From a virus (Duplodnaviria; Heunggongvirae; Uroviricota; Caudoviricetes), in the IMG/VR virus record IMGVR_UViG_2917875804_000002, positions 1-34,470 of that record: 34,470 bases of DNA; one strand, written 5' to 3'. Both the position numbers and the translations under genes were made by a program. Each line of letters opens with the position of its first letter. Within the stretch, counting starts at the first letter, position 1. The notes beneath the pieces were generated by a model. That model was not told the DNA's origin. It did not search any database and was given only the letters and a program-made list of their open reading frames with translations. Shown here piece by piece: positions 1 to 34,470 of the stretch.

Positions 1-634
1 TTACTGGATACTATTTGAAATAAGAAAGGAATTGCTAGGGTTATCAACGTTAGCATTAAGGCTGCTATCGCAATTATAAAGCCAGTTTTTTTTCGCAATG
101 ATTTTATTGATTTCTTTCGGAAGTCGTTTATCAAGTCCTGCAAAATCCTTTCCCATTCTAGAAAGTTGATCATCATCCAATTTATTTACGATTTTTCCTT
201 GGTAACCTTTAGTCGGTATTATTGTTTTAAATAATAACATTCGGGCTACTGCAGAATTTTGTGTCAATGAGAATGGTTCTTTTGACATATTTACAAGATA
301 TATTGAAATTATGCCATTATATCCAGGGTCAATATGCCCTGGATTCGTCATGATAATTCCATTTTTTGATAGTGTGTTTCTTGGGAATATTACACCAGCT
401 AAATTTTTTTGCAAGTTGGAATTTTTCATTTAACTCTAATATTACAGTTTCCCCTGGCATCAGGATATGGTTGTTACGTGTTTTTTTATTGTCTTGACAG
501 TCTGGTATATGTATTGTTTTTACAGAGAGATCAATGCTTGCAGATTGAACTTTAAATGTTCCATTTAATACCGTTAATGGATCAAAAATGTTGCCTCGCT
601 GAATTTCATCATTGATTTCTATTTCAGACAGCAT
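1..634 (-). CDS. dCTP deaminase/dUTPase-fold protein with C-terminal extension (cargo); reading frame broken by apparent 1-nt insertion in T7 run 404-410
   Basis: ORFs 329..634 and 1..429 overlap in different frames; N-part MLSEIEINDEI...NGTFKVQSASIDLSV and C-part NLAGVIFPRNTLSKNGIIMTNPGHIDPGYNGIISIYLVN resemble E. coli Dcd by eye (RIDPGWSG-type motif); RBS-like AGGA upstream of ATG at 634; strongly AT-rich. Confidence 0.6.
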
Positions 635-697
635 ATCAAAATCCTATATTTGTAAAGTTATTATAAATTAGCCAGAGGGTTTTTTATTACTGCATCT

Positions 698-1675
698 TCA
701 AGATGCTCTGGGGAAAAAATGTGCATAAATCATAGTCATTTTTATATCAGAGTGGCCTAAAATATCTCGTAAAACCAAAATATTACCACCATTCATCATA
801 AAATGGCTGGCGAATGTATGGCGCAGAACGTGGGTGCATTGGCCCTCTGGTAACTCAATGTCAGCTCGCTTTACTGCTCGTTCAAAGGCTTTTCTGCAAG
901 GAGTGAATAACTTCCCTCTGTTCTTAGGGAGTTCGTCATACAGATCCTGAGATATCGGCACGGTACGGTTTTTCTTGCCCTTAGTCTTGGTATAGGTGAT
1001 CCGGTATTTCGATAACTGATGGCCCTGCAGATTTTCGGCTTCACTCCAGCGCGCGCCGGTGGCCAGGCATATTTTTGCAATTAAAAGTAGACTGGGGTTT
1101 TGAGAATCAGCACAGGCATCCAGCAGACGTTTAATTTCTTCCGGGGTCAGGAACGCCAGTTCACCCTCAGCAATTTTAAATGTTGGCAGCCCGGCAAGCG
1201 GATTGGGGGCTGACCAGTGGCCCAACTTTTTCAGTGTGCCAAAAACAGATGATAGGTTGCGCTGTTCAAGGTTTACAGTGCGGGGCTTAACGGGCGACAT
1301 AAGCGTGCCCTCTTCATTTCGCACTTCACCTTTTAGCCGCGCTTCTCGGTATTTAGTAAAATCACCGGCTGTCAGCTCTGAGGCGATGGGATCGCCTAGA
1401 CCATTACAGATAATTCTAAGTTTCGCCATGAGGCGCTTGGGGTCTGCGAGTGTTTGACCATACAGGGAATACCACTGCTCAATTAATTCTGATAGGTGTC
1501 GCCGATCTTCCTTTTCCCCCAGCCATGGCTTTTTGTTCACTTCTTCCATTGTGAAGCTTTCAAAAGCAATGGCTTCGCCTTTCGTAGCAAATTGCTTACG
1601 CACGCGCTTGCCATTGCGTCCATGGGGATAGCACTCGCACAACCATTTACCGTTTGGCTGTTTTCTGACAGTCAT
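698..1675 (-). CDS. int: tyrosine site-specific integrase (P2/186 Int family)
   Basis: 325-aa ORF; C-terminal catalytic region HVLRHTFASHFMMNGGNILVLRDILGHSDIKMTMIYAHF with R/H/R/Y signature; position next to repressor. Confidence 0.9.
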   Translation of the reverse strand: MTVRKQPNGKWLCECYPHGRNGKRVRKQFATKGEAIAFESFTMEEVNKKPWLGEKEDRRHLSELIEQWYSLYGQTLADPKRLMAKLRIICNGLGDPIASELTAGDFTKYREARLKGEVRNEEGTLMSPVKPRTVNLEQRNLSSVFGTLKKLGHWSAPNPLAGLPTFKIAEGELAFLTPEEIKRLLDACADSQNPSLLLIAKICLATGARWSEAENLQGHQLSKYRITYTKTKGKKNRTVPISQDLYDELPKNRGKLFTPCRKAFERAVKRADIELPEGQCTHVLRHTFASHFMMNGGNILVLRDILGHSDIKMTMIYAHFFPRAS

Positions 1676-1677
1676 GT

Positions 1678-2310
1678 TTAGATACTCTTTATTACTTTGA
1701 CTGCACGCCCAATAACTTCCACATCATCAGTAGAGCACTCGAAAGACGCTTCATCTTGATTTACTACAATCTTATTGCCGGGAATCCGCATGATTTTTGC
1801 AACAATAATCATTCCATCAATATTGATAAGCCAGAATCCATTGCTGACCTGTTTAATTGATTTATCGATGAGATAACAATTAGTAGGGGTTTCTAAGAAC
1901 ATCAATTCTTCATAATCTGCAGGTAATATGCTGTGGTCTAGGAAAATCTCTTCATCAATACTGAGTTGTCCATTCTCCAGGGTTCCTTTAGGAATAGCTG
2001 GAGTTATGAGTTTGGATAACGGTTTAATTGCTTGTTTGTTCTCATTATGAGAACTTTTCTCAGGCTCAGCTCCTCCTTTCATGCTTCCCTGTCCTGTAGC
2101 TAACCAAAGCAACGAAACACCGGTTTCTAGTGCGCACTGAATTATCCAGTCAGCAGGAAAGCTGTCACGTAACACTCTGTTTGCCATAGTGCTTTTTGAG
2201 ACATTCAGGTGCTCGCTTAATGCCTGCTTAGTTGTGAATCCATAAGCCTCAAGCAGCCTTTCAATAGCTGCCTTACCTCCCGTATCGGAACCCATTCTGA
2301 TGTTTAACAT
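1678..2310 (-). CDS. cI: CI-type lysogeny repressor (186 CI-like, N-terminal HTH)
   Basis: 210-aa ORF directly upstream of int on same strand, divergent from apl/cII; HTH-like segment TTKQALSEHLNVSKSTMANRV. Confidence 0.75.
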   Translation of the reverse strand: MLNIRMGSDTGGKAAIERLLEAYGFTTKQALSEHLNVSKSTMANRVLRDSFPADWIIQCALETGVSLLWLATGQGSMKGGAEPEKSSHNENKQAIKPLSKLITPAIPKGTLENGQLSIDEEIFLDHSILPADYEELMFLETPTNCYLIDKSIKQVSNGFWLINIDGMIIVAKIMRIPGNKIVVNQDEASFECSTDDVEVIGRAVKVIKSI

Positions 2311-2432
2311 TGGTGATCTCCATTTGACAATCTTGAATCAAGATCGTAATGTCTTCATGTCTCTTGATGTGAGAGTTTAAGAGACGGGCTAAAAACGAAC
2401 TAACACGCACACAAAGTAAGAGATATTGCACT
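2311..2432. promoter_or_regulatory. lysis/lysogeny switch region with divergent promoters (TTGACA at 2324-2329 as candidate -35 of rightward promoter)
   Basis: Intergenic region between divergently oriented cI and apl; TTGACA followed about 17 nt later by an A/T-rich -10-like hexamer. Confidence 0.35.
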
Positions 2433-3426: not shown

Positions 3427-3731
3427 GCCCCGGTGAACGCCTGAATGGACTTAATCATATTGCGGAGTTAAGGGCGAAAGTTTTTGGTCTTAATATTGAG
3501 TCAGAGCTTGAGCGGTTTATTAAAGATATGCGTGATCCACGGGATATTAATAGCGAACAAAATAAACGGGCACTCGCTGCCATATTCTTTATGGCAAAAA
3601 TTCCAGCTGAACGTCATAGCATCAGCATTAATGAGCTGACCACTGACGAAAAGCGGGAGTTGATTAAAGCAATGAATCATTTTCGTGCAGTGGTGAGCTT
3701 ATTTCCCAGACGGCTAACCATGCCGAATTAA
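3390..3731 (+). CDS. early-operon hypothetical protein (start uncertain; may be joined to preceding ORF if an indel is present near 3370-3395)
   Basis: 113-aa ORF overlapping previous ORF by 37 nt in another frame; A6 and G5 runs in overlap. Confidence 0.35.
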   Translation: MAIEGAAATVPLSPGERLNGLNHIAELRAKVFGLNIESELERFIKDMRDPRDINSEQNKRALAAIFFMAKIPAERHSISINELTTDEKRELIKAMNHFRAVVSLFPRRLTMPN

Positions 3732-3798
3732 CCAACTAATGAAATTAATGGCGTAAACCCGCCGGGCATCCCTTTATCTAAATTCAGGAGAATTGATT

Positions 3799-4032
3799 AT
3801 GCGTAATATTGAAACCCTCACGACTAAAACCGGACCGGATGACGCAGGGCTTAATATTTTACTGACAGAGGCTCGTCTGGAAGAACGCCGGGCAAGGGCT
3901 GAAGCAATGGCAGCTCGCCTTGATAGCCTGGCGTGTCATATCACATCCCGCCAGCTAAACCACGTCGAAGCGGCAGAACTGCTGCGTGTGACTGCTGAAG
4001 CAATCCAGAACGAAGCGCAGGAGATCCACTGA
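3799..4032 (+). CDS. small early-operon hypothetical protein
   Basis: ATG at 3799 preceded by AGGAG (3786-3790); 77 aa, helical-looking, charged. Confidence 0.4.
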   Translation: MRNIETLTTKTGPDDAGLNILLTEARLEERRARAEAMAARLDSLACHITSRQLNHVEAAELLRVTAEAIQNEAQEIH

Positions 4033-4259
4033 TGGCTGATGCAATGGATCTCGTACAGCAGCGCGTTGAAGAAGAACGCCAGCGCCATATCTGTGCTGCC
4101 CGTGCTAAAACACCGGGCGTGTCCCGCGTGCTTTGCATTGAGTGTGAAGCGCCAATTCCGCCAGCACGCCGCCGCGCCATTCCGGGTGTGCAGCTTTGCA
4201 TTACCTGTCAGGAAATCGCAGAGCTGAAAGGTAAACATTACAACGGAGGTGCTGTATGA
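4032..4259 (+). CDS. TraR/DksA-family C4-type zinc-finger protein
   Basis: 75 aa with CIECEAP...CITCQ (CxxC-N17-CxxC) spacing typical of TraR/DksA zinc ribbon. Confidence 0.7.
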   Translation: MADAMDLVQQRVEEERQRHICAARAKTPGVSRVLCIECEAPIPPARRRAIPGVQLCITCQEIAELKGKHYNGGAV

Positions 4260-5113
4260 GCACCATCCTGAAATGGGCGGGAAATAAAACCGCCATTATG
4301 TCCGAACTGAAAAAACATCTTCCTGCTGGCCCGCGACTGGTTGAACCTTTCGCGGGTTCCTGTGCAGTGATGATGGAGACGGATTACCCCAGCTATCTGG
4401 TTGCGGATATTAATCCTGATTTAATCAATCTCTATAAAAAGGTTGCTGCTGATTGTGAGGCGTTTATATCTAGCGCCAGAATTTTGTTTGAGGAAGCAAA
4501 CAGGGAGGTGGCTTATTACAACATAAGGCAGGAGTTTAATTACTCCACTGAAATTACTGATTTCATGAAAGCGGTATATTTCCTGTATCTCAATCGTCAC
4601 GGTTACCGTGGTTTATGTCGCTATAACAAGAGCGGGCATTTCAACATTCCCTACGGTAATTATAAAAATCCGTATTTCCCTGAAAAAGAAATTCGCGCAT
4701 TTGCAGAAAAGGCCCAGCGAGCAACGTTTATCTGCGCCAGCTTTGATGAAACGCTGGCGATGTTGAAGGCGGGGGATGTGGTGTATTGCGATCCGCCGTA
4801 TGACGGTACGTTTTCCGGCTATCACACTGACGGCTTCACTGAAGATGACCAGTATCACCTGGCATCTGTTCTTGAACATCGGTCATCAGAAGGACATCCG
4901 GTCATTGTTTCTAACAGTGACACATCCCTGATCCGTTCGCTGTATCGCAATTTTACTCACCACTACATCAAGGCAAAACGCAGCATCGGCGTAGCAGCTG
5001 GTGAGAGTAAATCTGCAACAGAAATCATCGCTGTTTCTGGGGTGCGCTGCAGGGTGGGATTTGATCCTTCGCGTGGCGTGGATAGTTCTGCCGTGTACGG
5101 AGTGCGTGCATGA
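4256..5113 (+). CDS. dam: DNA adenine methyltransferase (Dam-like, D12 class N6-adenine MTase)
   Basis: N-terminal KWAGNK and EPFAGSCAV (AdoMet motif I), DPPY catalytic motif ([10 protein letters not shown]). Confidence 0.85.
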
Positions 5114-7524
5114 GCCATGCTGATATGAACAACTGCAGCGGCTTTAACGAGGCCGCCGCAGCATTCTCATGGAACAGCCCGAAAAAGGCCATTAACCCTT
5201 ATCTGGACCCGGCAGAAGTTGCGCCGGTTTCTGCGCTTTCAAACCTGATCACTCTGTACGCTACCGATAACGAGCAGGAACAACTGCGCCGCGAGGCACT
5301 GAGTGATCAGGTCTGGGAGCGTTATTTCTTTAATGAATCCCGTGATCCTGTCCAGCGCGAAATGGAGCAGGATAAGCTCATTAGCCGGGCAAAGCTGGCG
5401 CATGAGCAGCAGCGTTTTAATCCGGATATGGTCATTCTGGCGGACGTCAACGCCCAGCCTTCCCATATCAGCAAGCCGCTGATACAACGTATTGAATACT
5501 TCAGCAGCCTGGGCAGGCCAAAGGCTTATTCCCGCTATTTACGTGAGACGATTAAGCCATGTCTGGAACGACTGGAGCATGTACGCGACAGTCAGCTATC
5601 TGCATCTTTTCGCTTTATGGCAAGCCATGAAGGGCTGGACGGCCTGCTGATCCTGCCTGAAATGAGTCAGGATCAGGTGAAACGCCTGTCCACCCTGGTA
5701 GCTGCGCATATGAGTATGTGCCTTGATGCAGCTTGTGGCGATTTGTATGCCACCGATGACGTTAAGCCAGAAGAAATCCGCAAGACATGGGAAAAGGTGG
5801 CAGCGGAAACCCTGCGTCTGGATGTCATCCCGCCTGCGTTTGAGCAACTCCGCCGGAAAAGAAACCGCCGTAAACCCGTGCCCTATGAACTCATTCCGGG
5901 GTCGCTGGCGCGTATGCTGTGCGCCGACTGGTGGTATCGGAAATTGTGGAAGATGCGTTGCGAATGGCGGGAAGAGCAGTTGCGTGCTGTTTGCCTGGTC
6001 AGCAAAAAAGCATCTCCCTATGTCAGCTATGAAGCCGTGATGCATAAACGTGAGCAGCGCCGTAAGTCGCTGGAGTTTTTCCGTTCTCATGAACTGGTGA
6101 ACGAAGACGGCGACACGCTGGACATGGAGGATGTGGTAAACGCCAGCAGCAGCAACCCTGCGCATCGCCGCAATGAGATGATGGCCTGTGTTAAAGGTCT
6201 GGAGCTTATCGCGGAAATGCGCGGTGACTGCGCCGTTTTCTACACCATCACCTGTCCGTCACGTTTCCATTCCACGCTAAATAACGGCAGGCCCAACCCG
6301 ACTTGGACAAATGCGACGGTAAGACAAAGCAGTGATTATCTGGTCGGCATGTTTGCTGCATTTCGTAAGGCGATGCACAAAGCCGGGTTGCGCTGGTATG
6401 GCGTGCGGGTGGCTGAGCCGCATCATGACGGCACAGTTCACTGGCACCTGTTGTGTTTCATGCGCAAAAAAGACCGCCGCGCCATTACTGCATTGTTGCG
6501 TAAGTTTGCTATCCGTGAAGACCGCGAGGAGCTGGGTAATAACACGGGGCCACGCTTTAAGTCTGAGCTGATAAACCCGCGCAAAGGAACGCCGACTAGC
6601 TACATCGCGAAATACATCAGTAAGAACATTGACGGGCGTGGTCTGGCTGGCGAGATCAGCAAGGAAACGGGTAAATCTCTGCGTGATAACGCTGAATACG
6701 TTAATGCCTGGGCGTCTCTGCATCGTGTTCAGCAATTCCGCTTCTTTGGCATTCCGGGGCGTCAGGCTTACCGTGAACTGCGATTGCTGGCTGGTCAGGC
6801 GGCAAGGCAACAGGGTGACAAAAAAGCAGGTGCGCCGGTACTGGATAACCCGCGCCTTGATGCCATTCTGGCTGCAGCTGATGCTGGTTGTTTTGCCACC
6901 TACATCATGAAGCAGGGCGGCGTACTGGTTCCCCGTAAATATCACCTCATCAGAACCGCTTATGAAATCAACGAAGAGCCGACCGCCTATGGCGATCACG
7001 GCATTCGTATTTATGGCATCTGGTCACCCATTGCAGAGGGCAAAATCTGCACTCATGCCGTGAAGTGGAAAATGGTTCGTAAGGCCGTTGACGTTCAGGA
7101 GGCGGCAGCCGACCAGGGCGCTTGCGCCCCTTGGACTCGTGGCAATAACTGTCCCCTTGCTGAAAATTTGTACCAACAAGGGAAAGACAAATCAGCTGAT
7201 GGGGATACCAGAACGGATATCACCCGCATGGATGACAAGGAGTTGCACGATTACCTGCACAGTATGAGCAAAAAAGAGCGCCGGGAACTGGCAGCAAGGT
7301 TACGCCTGGTTAAACCGAAACGGCGTAAAGACTACAAACAGCGAATTACAGACCATCAGCGACAGCAGATCGTCTATGAGCTGAAGTCCAGAGGATTTGA
7401 TGGTAGCGAGAAAGAGGTCGATTTACTCCTTCGCGGCGGCAGTATTCCGTCAGGAGCAGGCCTGCGTATCTTCTATCGGAACCAGCGTTTGCAGGAAGAT
7501 GATAAGTGGCGGAACCTGTATTAA
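5110..7524 (+). CDS. A: replication initiation endonuclease (P2/186 gene A, rolling-circle initiator)
   Basis: 804-aa ORF at the position of gene A; HxH-type metal motif TVHWHLL; start overlaps dam stop. Confidence 0.85.
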
Positions 7525-8229: not shown

Positions 8230-8649
8230 CTATAAATTAGTTTTTATTAGATAGTGCCTTTGTGCCCCTGCTTTAGGGAAATCAGGTAATGACATTTGAA
8301 GTATATAACCCTGTTTTTCATAAAAAGGGAGCGCCTGGAAGCTAAATGTATCGACAAGGCCATGAATACAACCGTTCATCACACCTTCTTTCTCAGCCAT
8401 GCTCATAAGTTTGCTACCCAAACCGCCACTCCGTGCTGATTCACTCACCCAAAGATAATCAATACACAGCCATGGACCTTTCCTGTCCGCAATTAACCCA
8501 CCTACCATCTCTCCGATTTCATTTCTGCAGTAGACACCGATCTGTCCATTTTTACTAAAATCGATAAACTGAGCATTGTAGCTTCTTAGCCCCGCTAACA
8601 GTTCTTCTCTATCATATTCAGTAACTTTATGAACTACTTGAATGTTCAT
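8230..8649 (-). CDS. GNAT-family N-acetyltransferase (cargo at the old/tin-equivalent position)
   Basis: 139 aa; acetyl-CoA binding motif region [12 protein letters not shown]; AT-rich; oriented opposite to early operon, just inside cos. Confidence 0.7.
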
Positions 8650-8983: not shown

Positions 8984-9084
8984 CGGGGATACGAGCGCGC
9001 GCGGGCCATAGAACTAACTTATTGTATCTTGTAAACATTTGAGCATGTTGTAAGGAACAAAACCCTAATGTTATCATCAAAAAA

Positions 9085-10369
9085 ATGTTAGTTGGTTTAG
9101 AAGGAATGATGATGCAAAAGCAAAGGGTTTCTCAAGTATTCGTTCCCGGAGGTATGCCAAAGTTAACTTATGTTGAACGGACTGGGGGCGAGATAAAAGA
9201 AAGACTTGAGAGTGCAAAAGATAATTTGTGTAAGTTGGTTACCTTGACGGGACAAACCAAATCCGGAAAGACTGTACTTACACAAATGGTGTTTCCCTTT
9301 ACTGATCCGAATGTCATATGGATTGATGGTGGCGGTATTGCTGTCGAAAATGATATTTGGGAGCAAGTTTTAGACAAATTAGATATTTACACTAATGAGG
9401 AGGTCAACGTTTCTGATTCCTCATCAACTAATATCTCAGGCAAGGTTCATGCATCTGGTAGTGCCCTTGTTGTAAAAGGAGGAGGAGAGGCAGGGGTTTC
9501 GCAGACCGATGGGTCTTCTAAAGGTAAAAAAAAATGCAAGAACGATTACCCCAAAAAATGCGGCGATTAAAGCCTTAGCAGATAGTCAGGCTAGCCTTAT
9601 TATTGATGACTTTCATTACTTAGATAGAGAAATGCAGGGCAGCTTTGTAAGAGCAGTAAAGCCTTTAGTGTTTCATGGTGTACCTGTAATATTAATTGCT
9701 ATTCCACATAGAAGATACGATGCGATAAAAGTTGAGAGGGAGATTACTGGAAGATTAGAAAATATAATGATGCCATATTGGTCAGAAGATGAATTAAAAC
9801 AGATTGCATCATCGGGTTTTCCTCTTTTAAATATATCTGTATCTCAAGACGTTATAGACTTGCTTGCATCTGAAGCTTTAGGTAGCCCACATTTAATGCA
9901 AGAATTTTGCAAAAGTTTGTGTGCTGCTCATTCAATAAAAGAAACATCTGAGCAGACAGTGACAATATCTTCTATTGATGACTCACTGTTTAGAAATGTA
10001 GCTGAATCAACAGGGAAAGTGGTATTCGATAAATTAGCAACTGGCCCTCGCCAACGTTCCGATAGGTTGCCTCGTTTATTAAAGAATGGCGAGAGAGTTG
10101 ATATTTATAAAGTTGTCTTATATGCACTCTCTAACATGAAACCAGGAATGCAAACTATTCAGTATGAAGAGTTACGTACTGCTATTAGAGAAATAGTCGC
10201 AGAAACACCTCCCCAGGCTAATGAGGTTACACGAGTTCTTGAAAAAATGAGCGAGATCGCATCTAGTGAAGAGGCTTCAACACCGGTTATAGATTGGGAG
10301 AGAGAAGAACAAAAACTACATATTACCGATCCATTTTTTGCGTTTTACCTAAAATGGCGTGATCATTAA
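9085..10369 (+). CDS. P-loop NTPase of unknown family (cargo); frame broken in A9 run 9526-9534; true start probably ATG 9106-9112
   Basis: ORFs 9085..9570 and 9509..10369 overlap by 62 nt; Walker A GQTKSGKT in N-part, Walker B-like LIIDDFHYL in C-part; AT-rich; GAAGGA RBS before ATG triplet. Confidence 0.6.
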
Positions 10370-10409: not shown

Positions 10410-11445
10410 TTATGACCCTGCTAGGTAATACTTATCGAAAATAATAACTCTCTCGCCAAGCCAGTCGTTTAGTTCTTCCATTTGCTTCTGTAATGGCATT
10501 AATTCGTTCCGTACAAAAACTCGACTCGCCTTCTCCACATCCCCAAAACCCCCAACATTATTCGGCATTATCCCCATCATTTGCGGCGGCACGCGGTGTG
10601 CCGCCATCATGTCATCCCGGCTCACGTTCTTGATGTTCAGAAATTCATCCTTCGCTGCGACTTCTGACAACGGGATGATCTGAAGCCCGTCTTTTTTTGC
10701 CATTAGGCGAGTACATAAACAGGTTGCGGAAGTTACCAGGACCTTTGGCACTTTTCATCGCGTTGCGGAGATTGTTCACATCCTCCTGATTCTGCGCGGC
10801 ATCGGTCATATACATGATGAAGCCTGCATGGCTGCCGTTGATGTAATATTTGCGTCGGAACAGCGTGGCGGACTCATTGAGCAGGGCGGACGGAATGGCA
10901 GAAAGATAGCCGGGCAGGCCGTAGATCTCCTGGTTAATGTCCGGTTCCATCAGATGAAAAATGCTGCCTTTCGTGAACTGATACGGCTGGGTTGTCATAC
11001 CGTATTGCACAAACCAGTAGGTATCCAGGTCTAACCCGCGTCGGGTGTATTTTGCCAGAGCAGGCTCAAGGGCGATAACTTCACCGAAGCGGTTCGTGCG
11101 TTTCTCCAGGTAGGCGTTACCAAATACCAGATAGTCCTGCACAAAACGTGAAAAAGCCTGCTGGCTGAGCAGCGGGTGGGGGATGTAGGTACTGGTCAGA
11201 ATGTTGCATTTCACCGCAATTGGTGAACTGTGATGCACGGCGGCGCGGAAGGTGCGCGCCAGTCCGTCAAAGCTTACTGGCGGCTCATACCAGCGATCTG
11301 TCTGTACGCATTCCACATAGTCCAGTAGTTCGCGGCGGTCCAGAACAGGAACGGGATCACCGAAGCTGAATGCTTCGGCTGTAGTTTGACTTTTATGCTG
11401 GATCTGGTTCGTCGACGCAGCGCGGTTCTTCTTACTCTTTCCCAT
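10410..11445 (-). CDS. Q: portal (capsid portal protein, P2 gpQ-like); frame broken in T7 run 10691-10697
   Basis: ORFs 10645..11448 and 10410..10751 overlap; combined length about 345 aa; convergent partner of terminase, position next to cos. Confidence 0.85.
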
Positions 11446-13353: not shown

Positions 13354-14187
13354 ATGACAGTGAAAGCAAAGCGTTTTCGCATCGGGGTGGAAGGTGCCAC
13401 CACCGACGGACGCGAAATCCAGCGTGAATGGCTGGAACAGATGGCAGCCAGCTACAACCCGGCGGTGTATACCGCGCTGATTAACCTTGAGCACATCAAG
13501 TCTTATCTCCCGGACAGCACCTTTAACCGTTACGGCAAGGTGACGGCGCTGTTTGCTGAAGAAATCACGGAAGGCCCGCTGGCAGGCAAGATGGCGCTGT
13601 ATGCCGACGTTGAGCCAACGGAGTCCCTGGTGGAATTGGTGAAAAAAGGCCAGAAATTATTCACCTCTATGGAAGTCAGCCCGAAGTTCGCTGATACGGG
13701 CAAAGCCTACCTGGTCGGCCTGGCTGCCACTGATGACCCTGCCAGTTTGGGTACGGAAATGCTGACATTCAGCGCCAGTGCAGCCCATAACCCGCTGGCA
13801 AACCGCAAGCAGAATCTCGCCAATCTCTTTACCGCCGCAGAGGAAACGGTGATCGAACTGGAAGAAATCCAGGAGGACAAACCGTCCCTGTTTGCCCGTG
13901 TCACGGCGCTGTTTACCAAAAAAGAGCAGTCCGACGATGCCCGGTTCTCTGATGTGCATAAGGCCGTGGAGCTGGTCGCCACTGAGCAGCAAAACCTGAG
14001 CGCACGCACCGAAAAATCCCTGTCTGAGCAGGAAGAACGTCTGTCTGAGCTGGAGACTGCCCTGCAGGCACAGCAGACCGCCTTTAACGAACTGGTGAAT
14101 AAGCTGAGTCATGAAGACAGCCGCCAGGACTACCGCCAGCGTGCAACAGGCGGTAACGCCCCCGCTGACACTCTGACCAATTGCTGA
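13354..14187 (+). CDS. O: capsid scaffolding protein, P2 gpO-like
   Basis: 277 aa; position and N-terminal MTVKAKRFRIGVEGATTDGREI typical of gpO. Confidence 0.9.
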   Translation: MTVKAKRFRIGVEGATTDGREIQREWLEQMAASYNPAVYTALINLEHIKSYLPDSTFNRYGKVTALFAEEITEGPLAGKMALYADVEPTESLVELVKKGQKLFTSMEVSPKFADTGKAYLVGLAATDDPASLGTEMLTFSASAAHNPLANRKQNLANLFTAAEETVIELEEIQEDKPSLFARVTALFTKKEQSDDARFSDVHKAVELVATEQQNLSARTEKSLSEQEERLSELETALQAQQTAFNELVNKLSHEDSRQDYRQRATGGNAPADTLTNC

Positions 14188-14203
14188 TGGAGCACAAAAC
14201 CTG

Positions 14204-15262
14204 ATGAAGAAGAATACCCGCTTTGCTTTTAACGCTTACCTGCAGCAGCTGGCGCGTCTGAACGGTGTGGCAGTTGAAGAACTGTCCAGCAAGTTCACTG
14301 TAGAGCCGTCTGTGCAGCAGACGCTGGAAGACCAGATCCAGCAATCCGCCGCATTCCTGACGCTGATTAATGTCACGCCAGTGACTGAGCAGTCTGGTCA
14401 GTTGCTGGGGCTGGGTGTTGGCAGCACCATTGCCGGAACCACTGATACCACCGCAAAAGAGCGTGAGCCTGTCGATCCGACGCTGATGGTCGATGTGGAA
14501 TATAAATGCGAGCAGACCAACTTTGACACGGTGCTGACCTACGCGAAGCTGGACCTGTGGGCGAAGTTTCAGGATTTCCAGGTGCGTATCCGTGACGCCA
14601 TCGTGAAACGTCAGGCACTGGACCGCATCATGATCGGCTTTAACGGCGTGAAGCGTGCGAAAACCTCCAACCGTAGCGAAAACCCGCTGCTGCAGGATGT
14701 GAACAAAGGCTGGCTGCAGAAAATCCGTGAGGATGCACCGGATCACGTCATGGGCAGCACCACCACGGGCGGTGAAACCACACCGGGCGCAGTGAAAGTC
14801 GGCAAAGGTGGCGAATATGCCAACCTGGACGCTGTAGTGATGGATGCGGTCAATGAGCTTATCGACGTGGTCTACCAGGACGATGACGATCTGGTGGTGA
14901 TTTGCGGTCGTGAACTGCTGTCTGACAAGTATTTCCCGCTGGTCAACAAAGAGCAGGAAAACAGTGAAAAACTGGCTGCCGATATGATCATCAGCCAGAA
15001 ACGCATGGGTGGCCTGCAGGCCGTGCGTGCGCCATTCTTCCCGCCGAATGCGCTGCTGATCACCCGTCTGGATAACCTGTCCATCTACTGGCAGGAAGAC
15101 ACCCGCCGCCGTTCAGTTATCGACAACCCGAAACGTGACCGGATTGAAAACTTTGAATCCGTTAACGAAGCCTATGTGGTTGAGGACTACCGCTGCGCAG
15201 CACTGGTGGAAAACATCCAGATTGGCGATTTTAGCGCCGCTGCAGCAGAAGCCGGAGCGTAA
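14204..15262 (+). CDS. N: major capsid protein, P2 gpN-like
   Basis: 352 aa; strong by-eye similarity to P2 N (RFAFNAYL..., FTVEPSVQQTL, NGVKRA, IVNKEQ). Confidence 0.9.
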   Translation: MKKNTRFAFNAYLQQLARLNGVAVEELSSKFTVEPSVQQTLEDQIQQSAAFLTLINVTPVTEQSGQLLGLGVGSTIAGTTDTTAKEREPVDPTLMVDVEYKCEQTNFDTVLTYAKLDLWAKFQDFQVRIRDAIVKRQALDRIMIGFNGVKRAKTSNRSENPLLQDVNKGWLQKIREDAPDHVMGSTTTGGETTPGAVKVGKGGEYANLDAVVMDAVNELIDVVYQDDDDLVVICGRELLSDKYFPLVNKEQENSEKLAADMIISQKRMGGLQAVRAPFFPPNALLITRLDNLSIYWQEDTRRRSVIDNPKRDRIENFESVNEAYVVEDYRCAALVENIQIGDFSAAAAEAGA

Positions 15263-21059: not shown

Positions 21060-21657
21060 TCTGCTGCCACCGGGTTCAACTTCACTGGAGCGCCGACTGG
21101 CGCAAACCTGCAGCGGGATTTCTGATTTGCAGGTGCCGCTGCGTGACTTGTGGAATCCAACGACCTGTCCGATCAGTTTCCTGCCTTATCTCGCCTGGGC
21201 GTTCTCTGTGGATCGCTGGGACGAGGGCTGGACAGAAAGCGTCAAGCGCCAGGTAGTGAAGGATGCTTTTTATATTCATCAGCATAAAGGAACCACCAGT
21301 GCCGTGCGGCGGGTGGTGGAGCCGTTCGGCTTCCTGATCCGCATTATTGAGTGGTGGCAGACCGGAGAGACACCGGGCACGTTTCGCCTGGACATCGGCG
21401 TGCAGGATCAGGGCATCACTGAAGATACCTATTTAGAACTTGAGCGGCTAATAAGCGATGCCAAACCATGTAGCCGTCACATGATCGGCATGTCCATCAA
21501 TCTGCAGACCAGCGGTCCGCATTGGGTGGGGGCCGCCAGCTATCTTGGCGAAGAAATCACGATCTATCCGTATATCAACGAAACAATTATTTCTGGCGGC
21601 ACCGCGCATGAAGGCGGGGCGGTCCATGTTATTGACATAATGAGAGTGAATCCATGA
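21052..21657 (+). CDS. I: baseplate/tail protein I
   Basis: 201 aa, overlapping J stop and H start. Confidence 0.85.
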   Translation: MNSLLPPGSTSLERRLAQTCSGISDLQVPLRDLWNPTTCPISFLPYLAWAFSVDRWDEGWTESVKRQVVKDAFYIHQHKGTTSAVRRVVEPFGFLIRIIEWWQTGETPGTFRLDIGVQDQGITEDTYLELERLISDAKPCSRHMIGMSINLQTSGPHWVGAASYLGEEITIYPYINETIISGGTAHEGGAVHVIDIMRVNP

Positions 21658-23080
21658 GCACAAAATTTTATACCCTGCTGACGGATATTGGCGCGGCGAA
21701 ACTTGCCAGCGCCGCCGCGCTCGGTGTGCCTTTAAAAATTACCCATATGGCGGTCGGCGATGGCGGCGGAACATTGCCAACGCCGGACGCAAAGCAGACT
21801 GCACTGGTAAATGAGAAACGCCGGGCTGCGCTGAATATGCTCTATATCGACCCGCAGAACAGCAGTCAGATTATTGCTGAACAGGTGATCCCTGAAAACG
21901 AGGGTGGTTGGTGGATACGTGAAGTGGGCCTGTTTGATGAGTCAGGGGCATTGATTGCCGTGGGAAACTGCCCGGAAAGCTATAAGCCGCAACTAGCTGA
22001 AGGCAGCGGGCGCACCCAGACCGTGCGCATGGTGCTGATTACCAGCAGTACCGATAATATCACACTGAAAATTGACCCTTCAGTGGTGCTGGCAACCCGC
22101 AAGTATGTGGATGACAAGGTGCTTGAGCTTAAGGTGTATGTGGATGACCTGATGGCAAAGCATCTTGCTGCTGCAGATCCTCATACGCAGTATGCGCCCA
22201 AAGACAGCCCAACATTGACTGGCACGCCGAAAACGCCAACAGCACCGGCGGGAACTAACACGACTCAGATTGCTAGCACGGCATTTGTGCAGGCGGTGGT
22301 CACTGCGCTAAATAACGCACTGGCGTTGAAAGCTCCACTGGCAAATCCGGCCCTGACCGGAACGCCGACGGCTCCGACTGCAGCGCAGACGGCGAACAAT
22401 ACGCAGATTGCCACCACGGCATTTGTGAAAGCGGCAGTTGCGAGATGGTCGGTTCATCGCCGGAGGCGCTGGATACGTTAAATGAATTGGCTGCTGCGCT
22501 GGGGAATGATCCTAACTTTGCGACAACAGTAATGAGTGCGCTGGCGGGAAAAATGAACAAAGCAGCTAATGGCGCTGATATTGCCGATGTTTCTGCTTTT
22601 CTAAAAAACCTTCATCTTGGGGAGGGCAGTGCGTTGCCAGTCGGTGTTCCTGTTCCGTGGCCTACTGCAATACCGCCGGAAGGTTGGTTGAAGTGTAATG
22701 GAGCATCATTCAGTTCCTCGCAATATCCGAAACTGGCGCAGGTTTATCCGTCATTAAAATTACCAGATCTACGCAGTGAGTTTATTCGCGGCTGGGACGA
22801 TGGGCGTGGCGTAGACGCTGGACGTCAGGTTCTAACGTCTCAGACTGATGCTATGCAGCCGATTATCGGCTCCATTGGCTATGGTACAAACGGTATGTTT
22901 ACTTATGCTGATGGAGCTTTTACGGGTATAGATCGTGAAAGCGGAGACGGTATTGTTACACAGGCAACAAGCATCTCACAATATAAACAGGCTCACTTAG
23001 ATTCAATTACGATAACACGAACAGCGGCAGAAACACGTCCACGGAATATTTCATTTAATTACATTGTGAGAGCAGCATAA
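21654..23080 (+). CDS. H: tail fibre protein H; frame broken by 1-nt deletion near 22440-22445
   Basis: ORFs 21654..22481 and 22445..23080; conserved N-terminal MSTKFYTLLTDIGAAKLA and AFVKAAVA...VGSSPEALDTLNELAAALGNDPNF collar motif split across frames. Confidence 0.75.
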
Positions 23081-23802: not shown

Positions 23803-24813
23803 ATGAAAGAGAATAAAATACGTTCTGCCGATGGCGTGAGAGGTTTCGCTTTGATGATTGTTGTGGTGATGCATGCTACGGGACTATTCTTTCCCTCACT
23901 TCATGATCATCTCGGAGGTACGGGGCAGCCCGGTGTTTGGTTGTTTTTTGTTCTTAGCGCCTTTTTGTTGACACATAAATTTATTAATTCTGGTTTTTCG
24001 TTTTTGAATGTGTTGAGTTATCTTTTAGGGCGAACAATAAGGATATTACCGATTTTTTATATTGCAGTATTAATTTATTACCTTATGGGATTTTATGATT
24101 TAGAGAAAATGAAATCGATAATTTCATTTGATAGTACTTACATCCATTTCTGGACTATTCCGATAGAATTCAAGTTTTACTTTTTGTTGCCGATTGTGGT
24201 TTATCTCGCATCTAGTATCCAGAAAGTTGCAGGTAGAAAATATTCTTTGTTGTTTTTGATATTGTTAACCTTAGCGTTCGCTTTTATATACCCTTATACG
24301 GATGACGAAATCAACGGTAGGCTACCGTATTACATTCCTGTTTTTATGTATGGAATTATAATTGCGTTTATGTATAACTATTTTCAAATTAAAATATCAT
24401 CTCTCGTTAGTGATGGGGTGTCAATTGCGATTATATTAATATTTATAATGTTGACCCCTCCTTTTCAGGGGGCTAATGGTTGGCTGGGTAATAAATTTGT
24501 GGTATTAGGGCCATTTATTGCTCTCTTTGTATATTTGCAAGTAAATTCCAGTGGGTATGTAAGCGCGGTTTTATCTTCAAAAATCATGGCGGATTTGGGG
24601 AAATATAGTTTTTCAATTTATTTGTTTCATATAATGATAATTTTTATTGTTTATCCTAAATTTTTGGATAATGTTACTGCATACTTAGTTACTATAGCTT
24701 TATGTATTGGCGGTGGGGCTATTGCCTATCATTGCATTGAATCTCCCTTGGAATCGTTCAGACATAAGCTTATGAAAAGAATAACGCAGGCTTATCAGAA
24801 TCAAAATATTTAA
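23803..24813 (+). CDS. acyltransferase family 3 integral membrane protein (OafA/Oac-like O-acetyltransferase), cargo at Z/fun-equivalent locus
   Basis: 336 aa, about 10 hydrophobic segments, N-terminal RGFALMIVVVMH (conserved His in first TM), very AT-rich, own upstream region. Confidence 0.75.
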   Translation: MKENKIRSADGVRGFALMIVVVMHATGLFFPSLHDHLGGTGQPGVWLFFVLSAFLLTHKFINSGFSFLNVLSYLLGRTIRILPIFYIAVLIYYLMGFYDLEKMKSIISFDSTYIHFWTIPIEFKFYFLLPIVVYLASSIQKVAGRKYSLLFLILLTLAFAFIYPYTDDEINGRLPYYIPVFMYGIIIAFMYNYFQIKISSLVSDGVSIAIILIFIMLTPPFQGANGWLGNKFVVLGPFIALFVYLQVNSSGYVSAVLSSKIMADLGKYSFSIYLFHIMIIFIVYPKFLDNVTAYLVTIALCIGGGAIAYHCIESPLESFRHKLMKRITQAYQNQNI

Positions 24814-25041: not shown

Positions 25042-26215
25042 ATGGCTCAGGATTACCACCACGGGGTGCGCGTTGTTGAAGTCAACGAAGGCACCCGATC
25101 TATTACCACGGTGAGCACCGCCATCGTGGGCATGGTCTGCACGGGCGATGATGCCGATGCAAAAAATGTTTCCTCTTAATAAACCCGTGCTGATCACTGA
25201 TGTACTGACCGCCAGCGGTAAAGCGGGTGAGTCCGGCACGCTGGCCCGTTCGCTGGATGCCATCGCTGACCAGGCAAAACCCGTGACCGTTGTTGTGCGT
25301 GTGCCACAGGGTGAAACGGAAGAAGAAACCACAACCAATATCATTGGCGCAGTGACCGCCGAGGGTAAAAAAACAGGCATGAAAGCCCTGTTATCTGCCC
25401 AGACACAGCTCGGCGTTAAACCGCGCATTCTCGGCGTGCCAGGTCACGATAACAAAGCCGTTGCTACTGAGTTGCTGAGTGTGGCGCAAAGCCTGCGTGG
25501 GTTTGCCTACCTGTCAGCGTATGGCTGCAAGACGGTACAGGAGGCGATCACTTACCGTGAAAATTTCAGCCAGCGCGAAGGAATGCTGATCTGGCCTGAC
25601 TTTACTGGCTGGGACACGGTGCTGAATGCCGAAGCAACGGCATATGCCACCGCCCGTGCGCTTGGTCTGCGTGCCAAAATTGATGAGCAGACCGGGTGGC
25701 ACAAAAGCCTGTCCAACGTGGGCGTGAACGGTGTCACCGGAATTTCTGCAGATGTGTTCTGGGATCTGCAGGACCCGGCAACCGATGCAGGTCTGCTGAA
25801 CCAGAACGACGTCACCACGCTTGTGCGTAAAGACGGTTTCCGCTTCTGGGGTTCTCGCTGCCTGAGTGATGACCCGCTCTTTGCCTTCGAAAACTACACC
25901 CGCACGGCGCAGGTGCTGACGGACACAATGGCAGAAGCGCACATGTGGGCAGTGGACAAACCGCTGAACCCGTCGCTGGCGCGCGACATTATCGAGGGCA
26001 TCCGCGCCAAAATGCGCAGCCTGGTCAGTCAGGGGTATCTCATTGGTGGTGATTGCTGGCTGGACGAGTCGGTGAACGACAAAGACACGCTGAAAGCCGG
26101 AAAACTCACCATCGACTATGACTACACGCCAGTGCCGCCACTTGAAAATCTGATGCTGCGTCAGCGCATCACCGATCAGTACCTGGTGAATTTTGCCAGC
26201 CAGGTCAGCGCGTAA
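25042..26215 (+). CDS. FI: tail sheath protein FI; frame broken in A6 run 25160-25165
   Basis: ATG 25042 with GGAGG RBS gives [34 protein letters not shown] then frame switches to ORF 25148..26215 ([13 protein letters not shown]...), both parts closely parallel to P2 FI. Confidence 0.85.
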
Positions 26216-26794: not shown

Positions 26795-27097
26795 ATGAGT
26801 GATAAGCAGACTGAAAAGACCATTCAACTGGATACTCCCATCATGCGCGGTAAAACAGAAATTACCGAAATTGTGTTGCGTAAACCGCAGTCCGGTGCGC
26901 TGCGCGGCACACGCCTGCAGGCCATTATGGATATGGATGTGAACGCGATGATGACCGTGATCCCCCGCATCTCCAGTCCGGCACTGACTGCACAGGAAAT
27001 TGCAGAGCTGGACCCGGCAGATCTCACTGCCATGTCGGTTGAGGTTGTCACTTTTTTGTTGAAGAAGTCGGTGCTTGCCGGTTTACCGACAGCCTGA
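26795..27097 (+). CDS. E: tail assembly chaperone E
   Basis: 100-aa ORF before tape measure gene. Confidence 0.8.
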   Translation: MSDKQTEKTIQLDTPIMRGKTEITEIVLRKPQSGALRGTRLQAIMDMDVNAMMTVIPRISSPALTAQEIAELDPADLTAMSVEVVTFLLKKSVLAGLPTA

Positions 27098-27231
27098 CGG
27101 TTGACGATCTGGTGGCTGATATCGCCACCATCTTTCACTGGCCGCCATCCGTTACTGACGTTATGCCGCTGACCGAAGTGCTGGAATGGCGGTATAAAGC
27201 GATTCAGAGAAGCGGGGCCAGCCATGAGTGA
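26795..27231 (+). CDS. E+E' extended tail chaperone made by programmed -1 translational frameshift
   Basis: Slippery heptamer T_TTT_TTG in zero frame at 27052-27058; -1 frame stays open to TGA 27229-27231 overlapping the T start ATGAGTGA. Confidence 0.6.
27052..27058 (+). other. slippery sequence TTTTTTG for E/E' -1 frameshift
   Basis: X_XXY_YYZ heptamer in frame with E, about 40 nt before E stop. Confidence 0.6.
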
Positions 27232-31948: not shown

Positions 31949-32167
31949 ATGATGAATTGTCCAAAGTGTGGTCATGCGGCGCACACAAGGAGCAGTTTTC
32001 AAGTAACGGAAAGCACCAAAGAGCGTTACTGCCAGTGCCAAAATATTAACTGCGGGAGCACTTTTGTTACCCATGAAACAGTGGTCCGGTTTATTGTGAC
32101 ACCTGCATTGATCGCTACAGCCCCTCCACATCCATCGCTAGGAGGTCAGGGGCATATGAATTTTTGA
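31949..32167 (+). CDS. ogr: Ogr/B-type zinc-finger late-gene transcription activator
   Basis: MMNCPKCGHAAHTRSS...CQCQNINCGSTF; CxxC-N22-CxxC zinc finger as in P2 Ogr/186 B. Confidence 0.8.
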   Translation: MMNCPKCGHAAHTRSSFQVTESTKERYCQCQNINCGSTFVTHETVVRFIVTPALIATAPPHPSLGGQGHMNF

Positions 32168-32175: not shown

Positions 32176-32195
32176 ACCTGCTACGGCAGGTTTTT
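32176..32195. terminator. bidirectional rho-independent terminator between convergent ogr and WYL/BRCT gene
   Basis: ACCTGC-TACG-GCAGGT stem-loop flanked by A-run on the left and TTTTT on the right. Confidence 0.6.
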
Positions 32196-32677
32196 ATTCA
32201 TCTGGGATCTCACCTGTTTCAAGAAAATGTATAAAGCCAGGCTCATCTATGATGATAGTGCCTTTCATCCTTGCTGCCGATACTTTTGATGGGCCTGCAT
32301 TGTAACCGCAGCAGAGCATCTGAAGGTTTTGGGTTACAGAGGTTCTTACCGTTAATCCTTGTTCATTCGCCTTATCAACCAACCTTTCTTTATCTGCTTT
32401 CTTAAATCCGGTGAAACACACATCGAATGTATTTTTTTTTCGGGCCAGACTGCTTAGTGAGGTGTGAGTAGTTTTCGGGGAGGAATGTCTCGCATTCCTG
32501 AATGGCTTGTTCTTGTGAATCGTATTGTTTAAGAATGCGGTCTTTTCGGAAGGTTTTTATTCGGTCGGTGTTCTTACAAATGCCCTGTATATGATTTTCG
32601 CTATAACTGATGCTCTGTATTGAGTGAACACCGATACGACCATTTGCATTAATGTAAACAAAGTGAAGTTCTTCCAT
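32194..32677 (-). CDS. small protein with N-terminal WYL-like domain and C-terminal BRCT-like domain; frame broken in T9 run 32432-32440
   Basis: ORFs 32402..32677 and 32194..32421; N-part FVYINANGRIGVHSIQSISYSENHIQGICKNTDRIKTFRKDRI follows the WYL-domain pattern (F.Y..G...I.....H/W..G.C....R.FR.DRI); C-part FTGFKKADKERLVDKANEQGLTVRTSVTQNLQMLCCGYNAGPSKVSAARMKGTIIIDEPGFIHFL resembles a LigA-type BRCT by eye; AAGAGG RBS. Confidence 0.5.
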
Positions 32678-32703
32678 GTGAAACCTCTTGGCTTGATTTC
32701 AAG

Positions 32704-32742: not shown

Positions 32743-32761
32743 TTTGCCGCCACTACCAAAG

Positions 32762-32794
32762 AAAAAGGGGCTACGCCTTCACGTAACCCCTTGA
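32762..32794 (-). terminator. ssrA rho-independent terminator
   Basis: On minus strand GGGGTTACG-TGAAGG-CGTAGCCCC followed by TTTTT, immediately downstream of tmRNA CCA end. Confidence 0.55.
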
Positions 32795-32800
32795 TTTATT

Positions 32801-33163
32801 TGGTGGAGCTGGCGGGAGTTGAACCCGCGTCCGAAATTCCTACATCCTCGGTACTACATGCTTAGTCAGTCTTTACATTCGCTTGCCAGCTGCGGACAGA
32901 CACGCCACTAACAAACTAGCCTGATTAAGTTTTAACGCTTCAACCCCAGGCTGGGCTTCCACGCGATCTCTTTTGGGTTTGACCTCTCTTGATCCCCGTC
33001 CTAAGAGCGGAGGCTAGGGAGAGAGGGCTCTAAGCAGGTTATTAAGCTGCTAAAGCGTAGTTTTCGTCGTTTGCGACTATTTTTTGCGGCTTTTTACGAG
33101 GCCAACCGCCCCTCGGCATGCACCTTGGGTTTCGCAAATCCCGTCGAATCCAGAATCAGCCCC
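32801..33163 (-). ncRNA. ssrA: tmRNA (SsrA RNA)
   Basis: 363 nt; reverse complement begins GGGGCTGATTCTGGATTCGACGGG and ends CCAGCTCCACCA, matching E. coli tmRNA essentially throughout. Confidence 0.95.
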
Positions 33164-33377
33164 AATGTGTAACGTTAAGTATACCAGATTTTTGAGCGCC
33201 ATGACTAGCCCCAAAGGCGTTATCATCCTGGAATTAGCGCCTGCATAGTATGATTTTTCTTCGATTAAGCAATGGGATGGCTACATCAATGTCAGATTTG
33301 ACAGTCGACAAGGTGTTCATTCGCGCCACCGGATAGGGAGGCGCGGTGAAGATTTGATTAGTATCGCTTATATAGGT

Positions 33378-33861
33378 TTAACGGTGCGCGTTTTTCATGA
33401 TACGTGCTTTATCAACCTGCCATTCACGTTCTTTGATATCAGAACGTTTATCGTGTTGTTTCTTACCTTTCGCGACGCCGATTTTTACTTTGCACCAGGC
33501 ATTTTTCCAGTACAGGGAGAGCGCCACTACGGTATAACCTTCACGGTTCACTCGGCCATAGAGAGAGTCAAGTTCGCGCTGGTTGAGAAGCAGTTTGCGG
33601 GTGCGAGTAGGGTCGCACACCACGTGCGTGGAAGCCACTGCCATCGGCGTGATGTTTGCTCCAAACAGGAACGCTTCTCCGTCGCGCAGAAGGACATAGC
33701 TGTCGCTAATATTGGCTTTTCCTGCGCGCAGGGATTTAACTTCCCAGCCTTGCAGGGCAAGTCCCGCTTCGAACTCTTCTTCAATAAAGTATTCGTGACG
33801 GGCGCGCTTGTTAAGCGCGATGGTCGCTGAACCAGGTTTATGTGCTTTTTTTCTTCGTCAT
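33378..33861 (-). CDS. smpB: SsrA-binding protein SmpB; frame broken by extra base in T7 run 33846-33852 (expected A6 after ATGACGAAG)
   Basis: ORF 33378..33644 is identical by eye to the E. coli SmpB C-terminal 88 aa; N-terminal MTKKK start codon at 33861 is out of frame by one nucleotide. Confidence 0.85.
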
Positions 33862-33993
33862 AAGCGTCGTGAATCATCGGTAATCTGAAATCGAAAATAC
33901 CCCATATCAATCCTGCGGGGGACAAGGCTCTATCTTAGCATGAACCGGATGTTACCCAGCGTCGGGATAGCGTTTTTTTTTACGGCAGGATAA

Positions 33994-34470
33994 ATGATAT
34001 TATTTGTTGGATTTTTGTTGATGGAAATTGTTATGCCTCAGATTAGCCGGACCGCACTGGTACCCTACAGCGCGGAGCAAATGTATCAGTTAGTGAATGA
34101 CGTTCAGTCTTATCCTCAGTTTTTACCAGGGTGCACTGGAAGCCGGATTCTGGAGTCCACTCCTGGGCAGATGACCGCTGCGGTAGATGTGTCTAAGGCT
34201 GGGATCAGCAAAACGTTTACTACCCGCAACCAATTGACCAGTAACCAAAGTATTCTGATGAGTCTGGTTGATGGACCGTTTAAGAAATTGATCGGCGGCT
34301 GGAAGTTTACGCCGTTGAGCCAGGACGCGTGCCGTATTGAGTTTCATCTCGACTTTGAGTTTACCAATAAGTTGATTGAACTCGCCTTTGGTCGCGTGTT
34401 TAAAGAGCTGGCAGCTAATATGGTGCAGGCTTTTACTGTTCGTGCAAAAGAGGTCTACAGTGCCAGGTAA
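33994..34470 (+). CDS. ratA: RatA/PasT (YfjG) SRPBCC-family ribosome-association toxin homologue
   Basis: 158 aa, MPQISRTALVPYSAEQMYQLVNDVQSYPQFLPGC...; divergent from smpB as in E. coli K-12; window ends exactly at its stop codon. Confidence 0.85.
   Translation: MILFVGFLLMEIVMPQISRTALVPYSAEQMYQLVNDVQSYPQFLPGCTGSRILESTPGQMTAAVDVSKAGISKTFTTRNQLTSNQSILMSLVDGPFKKLIGGWKFTPLSQDACRIEFHLDFEFTNKLIELAFGRVFKELAANMVQAFTVRAKEVYSAR

Follow-up and report, generated by a model that had tools for sequence, protein, structure and literature searches.

Assemblies built from Ion Torrent data carry homopolymer indels that give rise to frameshifts, with an error rate that goes up with the length of the run and with adenine as the worst affected base (PMC12046094). 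The draft genome of Escherichia cryptic clade II strain E4208 (PDIC00000000) was obtained on this platform from 35-400 nt single-end reads at 45x coverage and was assembled with MIRA and SPAdes (PMC6639607), and clade II genomes were used in a follow-up study by the same group to seek functional divergence (PMC7716201). The window analyzed here, by which we mean the entire stretch of 34,470 nt, is 100% identical to a contig of strain E4208, GenBank PDIC01000038.1, and the 17,524 nt compared contain neither a mismatch nor a gap. The window contains a series of frame breaks that are far beyond chance, and an initial annotation made from the letters alone had taken them for errors rather than pseudogenes. 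We agree with that reading, given the Ion Torrent source record and a sibling assembly that is in-frame at 13/13 sites.

The P2-like phages (Peduoviridae), including Escherichia phage Cartapus and phages of the P2/186 type that occupy ssrA, are collinear in gene order with the prophage that fills most of the window (positions 661-32677). Cartapus is the closest named phage, at 94.9% identity over 81% of the query. The prophage encodes integrase, CI, cox, CII, replication genes up to gpA, portal, terminase, capsid, lysis functions, baseplate, tail fibre H, sheath, tube, E/E', T, U, D and ogr in that order, followed by a BRCT-like cargo gene. It differs from the P2-like phages in its cargo, which includes thyX and a dcd-like gene beside int, a GNAT gene and a PDC-S59-like gene before the portal gene, an Acyl_transf_3 gene after the tail-fibre genes, and the BRCT-like gene after ogr. 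The integration site is the host tmRNA gene ssrA (32801-33163, minus strand), and one copy of a 46-bp att repeat, which corresponds to the 3' end of ssrA, is at 32800-32845; the left copy lies outside the window, ~1.1 kb before position 1. Once the run-length errors between 661 and 32677 are removed, all genes of the prophage are full length, and the corrected locus is an apparently intact, ordinary P2-like prophage at ssrA with a few cargo genes.

The sibling assembly, GCA_005781195.1, has a contig (VATR01000031.1) that spans the window from end to end without a single substitution in 34.5 kb and differs from it at 13 runs only, each by a single base. Homopolymer compression makes the two sequences the same over 25,409 runs, leaving the order of the bases unchanged. 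Of the 13 differences, 12 add one base to an A/T run, three are intergenic, and those outside the intergenic regions break nine genes, one of them twice. The mix of lesions expected of pseudogenes (substitutions, nonsense codons, larger deletions and IS insertions) was not seen between window and sibling, where 1-nt run-length changes are the only type of difference. The true run lengths and the intact product sizes quoted below are those of GCA_005781195.1.

At the left end of the window, the dcd-like gene (positions 1-634, minus strand, with its 3' end past the left window edge; 261 aa intact; Pfam DCD match, E 5.9e-15, dCTP deaminase-like) is the one that is broken twice, by a T8 at 86-93 that is T7 in both the sibling and E. 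coli TUM12355, and by a T7 at 404-410 in place of T6. The adjacent minus-strand integrase gene (661-1675; 337 aa intact) has A6 for A5 at 714-719, which alters the last ~19 codons and leaves a 325-aa open reading frame in the window. An A5 for A4 lies in the intergenic region between CI and cox (2391-2395), and the plus-strand cox/apl gene (2433-2676; 80 aa intact) is split by an A8 for A7 at 2572-2579. On the plus strand, an A7 for A6 at 9079-9085 ends in the A of the start codon of an AAA-like NTPase gene and thus sits upstream of the coding frame, where it is harmless to the gene. The NTPase gene itself (9085-10369; 427 aa intact; PADLOC PDC-S59 match, E 2.9e-36) is divided into open reading frames of 161 aa and 286 aa by an A9 for A8 at 9526-9534.

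Among the structural genes, the minus-strand portal gene (10410-11445; 344 aa intact) is split by a T7 for T6 at 10692-10698, and the plus-strand tail sheath FI gene (25042-26215; 390 aa intact) by an A6 for A5 at 25161-25166; the initial annotation had placed both runs one base too far left (10691-10697 and 25160-25165), and its positions for the second dcd-like run, the cox/apl and NTPase runs, and the BRCT-like and smpB runs described next were exact. The break that it had put near 22440-22445 in the plus-strand tail fibre H gene (21654-23080; 475 aa intact) corresponds to a missing C at 22441, where the window has a single C and the sibling CC, such that GCC is read as GC and the gene is split into open reading frames of 275 aa and 211 aa. 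This is the sole -1 event and the sole break outside an A/T run. At the right end, the minus-strand BRCT-like cargo gene (32194-32677; 160 aa intact) is split by a T9 for T8 at 32432-32440. This gene was first labelled WYL/BRCT; its match to Pfam BRCT is a weak one that falls short of the cut-off (E 9e-4), and no evidence of a WYL domain was found. The host smpB gene (33378-33861, minus strand; 160 aa intact) has a T7 for T6 at 33846-33852, a +1 event in codons 4-5; as had been described, ATG ACG AAG on the minus strand runs into seven A, compared with six in relatives. Finally, a T9 for T8 lies between smpB and ratA (33973-33981). All eight of the frame breaks first listed are therefore present in the sequence, but the list was incomplete, since nine genes and 13 sites are affected; the five sites that it lacked, all +1, are the first dcd-like run, the integrase run and the three intergenic runs.

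The rate of +1 events rises with the true length of the A/T run, from 1/206 at 4 nt (0.5%) through 2/84 at 5 nt (2.4%), 4/36 at 6 nt (11%) and 2/6 at 7 nt (33%) to 3/4 at 8 nt (75%), and none was found in the 128 G/C runs of at least 4 nt in the window. Coding sequence holds 9 of the 12 A/T events, where run content predicts 85% (p = 0.41). Coding and non-coding runs are affected in proportion to run content, and no trace of selection is visible, not even in the conserved host smpB gene. The left flank of the window on the same contig holds 8 further +1 A/T events in 4.9 kb, and in window and flank together 20 of the 21 indels in 39.4 kb are +1. This AT-rich flank, which carries thyX, would have been expected to contain 2.1 events from the rate model rather than the 8 observed; since the model under-predicts the flank, the per-length rates are rough and a genome-wide extrapolation from them is good to an order of magnitude only.

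The direction of the changes was assigned with five more distant E. coli references, ten E. coli loci retrieved by an exact look-up of the RatA protein, and Escherichia species representatives. The RatA look-up, intended to carry the source contig on into the essential host genes grpE and nadK, gave nothing but unrelated E. coli loci, as RatA is too common a protein; the ten loci served only as controls for the T6 and T8 runs in smpB and between smpB and ratA. Complete E. coli genomes reached at best ~95% identity, which is enough for polarity but too distant to exclude real divergence, a limit that was resolved when exact-protein look-ups turned up the 0-SNP sibling. The run lengths of the sibling recur in the E. 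coli references, prophage and host, and in the Escherichia species representatives, which makes the window the outlier, and the agreement between sibling and references extends to the three non-coding sites. The sole exception among the relatives compared is the cox run of TUM12355, which is one base shorter, in the opposite direction to the window. Across 185,579 species-representative genomes, the T6 allele of smpB was found in 101 matching stretches and the T7 allele in none. GCA_005781195.1 may be a different isolate despite the 0 SNPs over 34.5 kb. A second data set, Logan assembly SRR8835205, has the sibling run lengths at the three sites that it covers; the run lengths of the window are absent from the 0-SNP sibling and, at three sites, from SRR8835205, and either of these may come from a strain other than E4208.

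Logan assembly SRR6148339, which is probably built from the E4208 read run, has the three indels of the window that fall in its range, plus two extra one-base deletions, which marks the calls as unstable. This recurrence indicates that the indels are systematic in that read set, and we infer that the E4208 reads are themselves ambiguous at these runs. Hits in the look-ups made with frameshifted protein fragments were confined to PDIC01 and Logan assembly SRR6148339. A further hint comes from the density of annotated genes, which is 1.016 CDS per kb in E4208 versus 0.91-0.93 in the 100x genomes of the same announcement (PMC6639607), although the trend of CDS density with coverage over the 16 announced strains is weak (Spearman rho -0.50, p = 0.05) and is suggestive rather than decisive.

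The breaks are almost certainly sequencing errors, because the window comes from an Ion Torrent draft and an otherwise identical assembly has every gene intact. To judge from the sequence comparisons, they are very probably run-length miscalls that became fixed in the consensus of the 45x single-end E4208 draft. In flow chemistry each homopolymer gives one signal, and since that signal is not cleanly proportional to run length, long runs are miscounted. Here, one base too many would have been called systematically in A/T runs and one too few at a CC, and a miscount in a coding region shifts the frame and leads gene callers to report two fragments. In the real DNA, smpB is most likely normal and the P2-like prophage at ssrA intact. 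The proposal that these are assembly errors is right in that they appear to be artefacts, but base-calling or consensus errors describes them better than assembly errors in the narrow sense. Similarly, the attribution to a long-read or pyrosequencing-type method was correct as to the flow principle and the weakness at homopolymers that Ion Torrent shares with pyrosequencing, but the platform is a short-read one.

An alternative possibility, which we regard as very improbable, is that the changes are genuine mutations and that E4208 carries a decayed, defective prophage and is smpB-null as a result of slippage in A/T runs, for instance in a mismatch-repair-deficient lineage. E. coli does not strictly require smpB, and the recurrence of three indels in SRR6148339, taken alone, is also expected of real mutation. 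Moreover, slippage indel rates in mismatch-repair-deficient E. coli climb steeply with homopolymer length (PMC8510543). The mutational spectrum of such cells, however, comprises 30,061 substitutions and 5,324 indels (PMC8510543), under which 13 indels in 13 changes have P = 2e-11 and the 21 indels in 39.4 kb P = 5e-18. Genuine mutation also fits poorly with the nearly uniform +1 direction, with the equal treatment of coding and non-coding runs, with a platform known for exactly such errors and with the missing T7 allele of smpB in the species representatives. Lesions inherited by related strains were not seen, the fragments looked up being confined to the two assemblies named above. The rates observed here, if applied to ordinary host DNA, would give ~0.3 indels per kb and well over 1000 indels per genome, as an order of magnitude, which is hard to square with a free-living isolate. 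It is similarly hard to credit that E4208 truly carries the +1 insertions through a mutational process that acts on A/T runs without substitutions and that inactivated the prophage and smpB very recently; if true, such a +1 process acted in an environmental isolate of Escherichia clade II.

Still further from what we would expect is that the runs are functional slippery sites, either contingency loci for phase variation or signals for programmed frameshifting, ribosomal or transcriptional, at which the out-of-frame state is native and is decoded into the full-length product. Runs of 9 nt of A or T can support transcriptional slippage, and the window does contain a genuine programmed -1 site, the TTTTTTG at 27052-27058 of the P2 E/E+E' tail chaperone genes, but this E/E' site is the only place where a conserved two-frame arrangement was found. 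With the exception of the TUM12355 cox run, every relative examined with comparable sequence at the site (the sibling with its 0 SNPs, and E. coli prophages and hosts of ~95% identity) has the in-frame length at all nine genes, so the out-of-frame state is not conserved; in addition, intergenic runs are equally affected, and one of the breaks, from CC to C, involves no slippery run. An under-calling of runs in GCA_005781195.1, with the window being correct, deserves equally little credence. Two drafts alone cannot show which of them errs, but the run lengths of the sibling yield nine full-length genes and match those of the five E. coli references, the ten loci from the RatA look-up and the Escherichia representatives, non-coding sites included. 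Miscalled run lengths in the E4208 draft thus stand as the best explanation.

The value of this result is for quality control only. The E4208 assembly cannot be trusted at face value on whether genes are intact, how many pseudogenes exist, how complete a prophage is or whether a function has been lost, and the same caution probably applies to other low-coverage Ion Torrent drafts of the BioProject.

When set against known error systems, the window resembles slippage in mismatch-repair-deficient cells in having one-base indels in mononucleotide runs with a steep length dependence (PMC8510543), and it departs from that system in that ~5.6 substitutions accompany each indel there and none is found in the window. 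454 pyrosequencing shares the flow principle and the type of error, whereas the platform behind the window is Ion Torrent, with its pH detection. The closest likeness is to Ion Torrent homopolymer errors, which are single-base, rise with run length, affect A/T most and produce spurious split genes. Both insertions and deletions are described in the Ion Torrent literature, whereas the events in the window are almost purely +1 (12/13, or 20/21 with the flank); this near-exclusive direction is stronger than in the mixed errors usually described for the platform. The per-run rate in the window, at 75% for 8 nt, is also very high.

The frame breaks that interrupt genes along the window are almost certainly a sequencing artefact, with no biological feature behind them. 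A P2-like prophage fills the window, running from its integrase end (integrase, 661-1675, minus strand) through ogr (31949-32164) to a BRCT-like gene (32194-32677), and is followed by host ssrA (32801-33163, minus strand), smpB, and ratA. When translated proteins annotated in a related E. coli prophage were searched against the window, nearly all reference proteins with a counterpart in the window gave a full-length single match, except in part of the tail-fibre region, and a mid-gene frame switch was seen in seven: integrase, cox/apl, portal, H, sheath, the BRCT-like protein, and smpB. Neither the dcd-like gene nor the NTPase gene is carried by this reference; both are likewise split when judged by other E. 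coli records. All eight of the frame-break sites named in the initial annotation were found in the window; its portal and sheath runs were placed one base off, and the break it put near 22440-22445 in tail fibre H is real, the lesion being a missing C at 22441.

Exact-protein look-ups with the tape-measure protein and the replication protein led to two contigs, PDIC01000038.1 and VATR01000031.1. The latter (assembly GCA_005781195.1; here called the sibling) spans the entire window. There are no substitutions between the window (34,470 nt) and the sibling (34,459 nt), and the two are identical over 25,409 runs once homopolymers are collapsed. Run length is unequal at exactly 13 runs. The window is one base longer at 12 of these, every one of them an A or T run (86-93, 404-410, 714-719, 2391-2395, 2572-2579, 9079-9085, 9526-9534, 10692-10698, 25161-25166, 32432-32440, 33846-33852, and 33973-33981), and the sole run that is one base shorter lies at 22441, where the sibling has CC and the window has C. 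In the sibling, gene calls recover a full-length product for each of the nine genes affected (dcd, 261 aa; int, 337; cox, 80; NTPase, 427; portal, 344; H, 475; sheath, 390; BRCT-like, 160; smpB, 160). The initial observation of frame breaks is confirmed, and it now covers nine genes and 13 sites. The Logan assembly of SRR8835205 has the sibling run length at all three of the sites that it covers.

It could be argued that the miscounts sit in the sibling and that the window is correct, but this reading is excluded because the outgroups agree with the sibling. These comprised five more distant E. coli prophage or host references, ten E. coli loci obtained via a ratA look-up, and representatives of the Escherichia species E. 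coli, E. albertii, E. ruysiae, and E. whittamii. The sibling run length also occurs in the distant references wherever the site is covered and alignable, three non-coding sites included; the portal run in the E. coli references is C followed by T5 rather than T6. The clear exception is the cox run of TUM12355, which is shorter still than that of the sibling. When 185,579 species-representative genomes were scanned for exact matches, the T7 allele of smpB found in the window had none and the in-frame T6 allele had 101 matching stretches. Given the sibling run lengths in the outgroups and the lack of a match to the smpB T7 allele in that scan, it is the window that departs from the rest. The E. 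whittamii type strain is among the species representatives that match the smpB T6 pattern. The TUM12355 cox run (within 5429-5670 of the locus taken from NZ_CP134376.1, a complete RefSeq record) is A6 and not A7, and the gene is annotated as frameshifted; the run is therefore either miscounted or truly variable there, in the opposite direction to the window.

The window and PDIC01000038.1 (GCA_004745305.1) show 0 mismatches and 0 gaps across the 17,524 nt compared. PDIC00000000 is Escherichia cryptic clade II strain E4208, an intertidal sediment isolate from Hong Kong; its genome was read on Ion Torrent (45x, single-end, read lengths 35-400 nt), and MIRA and SPAdes were used for the assembly (PMC6639607). 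Against 5,426 complete E. coli genomes, the best identity for the host flank and prophage is only ~95%, a level that fits a source in Escherichia cryptic clade II rather than in E. coli proper. Judging by accession numbering, SRR6148339 is probably the E4208 run. Its Logan assembly has the same three indels as the window within its range, together with two further single-base deletions: A3 to A2 at 18103, whereby lysB and lysC become one 186-aa ORF, and C2 to C1 at 25492, which gives the sheath gene a second break. Run-length calls from this read set are thus unstable between assemblers. Those frameshifted protein fragments that were looked up were found in PDIC01 and the SRR6148339 Logan assembly only.

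Ion Torrent homopolymer indels lead to frameshifts in assemblies, with accuracy falling as runs lengthen and adenine being the worst affected (PMC12046094). The rate of added bases in the window climbs with the true length of the A/T run, from 1/206 at 4 nt to 2/84 at 5, 4/36 at 6, 2/6 at 7, and 3/4 at 8, and none of 128 G/C runs of at least 4 nt differs from the sibling. Coding and non-coding runs are affected about as often as their share of runs predicts: coding sequence holds 9 of the 12 A/T events, versus 85% expected from run content (p = 0.41). Left of the window on the same contig, 4.9 kb holds eight further one-base A/T gains, mostly in the AT-rich thyX and confined to 1.2 kb (positions 3600-4801 of PDIC01000038.1), and thyX is reduced to fragments of 82 and 113 aa. 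The window's per-length rates predict 2.1 events in this flank, so very AT-rich sequence may have a higher error rate. The GC-rich gabD, lhgO, and csiD of the host have no events; the rate model predicts 0.4 for them.

That the run-length changes are real mutations in E4208 is highly improbable, because slippage mutations bring substitutions with them and here there are none. Mismatch-repair-deficient E. coli mutation-accumulation lines yielded 30,061 substitutions versus 5,324 indels (PMC8510543); under that spectrum, 13 indels out of 13 differences have a probability of ~2e-11, and extending the count to the 21 events of the whole contig stretch examined lowers it to ~5e-18. Also unlike natural decay are the near-exclusive gain of one base, the absence of a selection signal in a conserved host gene, and the density, extrapolated to ~0.3 events in each kb of ordinary host DNA. 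Programmed frameshifting or phase variation at these runs is excluded, since the out-of-frame state is conserved in none of the relatives compared and intergenic runs are struck equally. The window's one genuine programmed site is TTTTTTG at 27052-27058 (plus strand), the conserved frameshift of the P2-type tail chaperone; it lies late in gene E (26795-27097), E' being read in the -1 frame (27112-27228), and is the same in window and sibling. For the 13 runs, the initial reading of errors and not pseudogenes is supported, and the platform responsible can now be named as Ion Torrent.

The underlying locus is a P2-like prophage that appears intact, with the 3' end of ssrA as its integration site. 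The element is flanked by direct copies of 46 bp from that end of ssrA (32800-32845 in the window and 3764-3809 in the sibling). The left att copy lies outside the window, ~1.1 kb left of position 1, and so thyX and the dcd-like gene are inside the element, between att and integrase; neither thyX nor the dCTP-deaminase-like gene had a PADLOC match. The cargo includes a protein that is only weakly BRCT-like, a GNAT acetyltransferase gene (8230-8649, minus strand), and a gene for a 427-aa AAA-like protein (9085-10369, plus strand; 13975-15258 in corrected form in the sibling) that is split by the A9 run. For the 427-aa protein, PADLOC gives a match to the candidate defence family PDC-S59 (E 2.9e-36), and Pfam gives weak, below-cut-off matches to AAA_22 and AAA_16. 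A further cargo gene, Acyl_transf_3 (23803-24813, plus strand; Pfam E 2.2e-26), comes after the tail-fibre assembly gene and ahead of the sheath gene.

The nearest named phage is Escherichia phage Cartapus (94.9% identity, 81% of the query). The GNAT and AAA-like genes share a variable cargo slot between DinI and portal, which in related E. coli prophages is occupied by other genes, for example those for DUF2971, DprA, a P-loop NTPase, or an HNH endonuclease. From ~22296 on, the C-terminal part of H and the tail-fibre assembly gene differ from those of the E. coli relatives, which at the position of the Acyl_transf_3 gene carry an invertible tail-fibre cassette and a recombinase.
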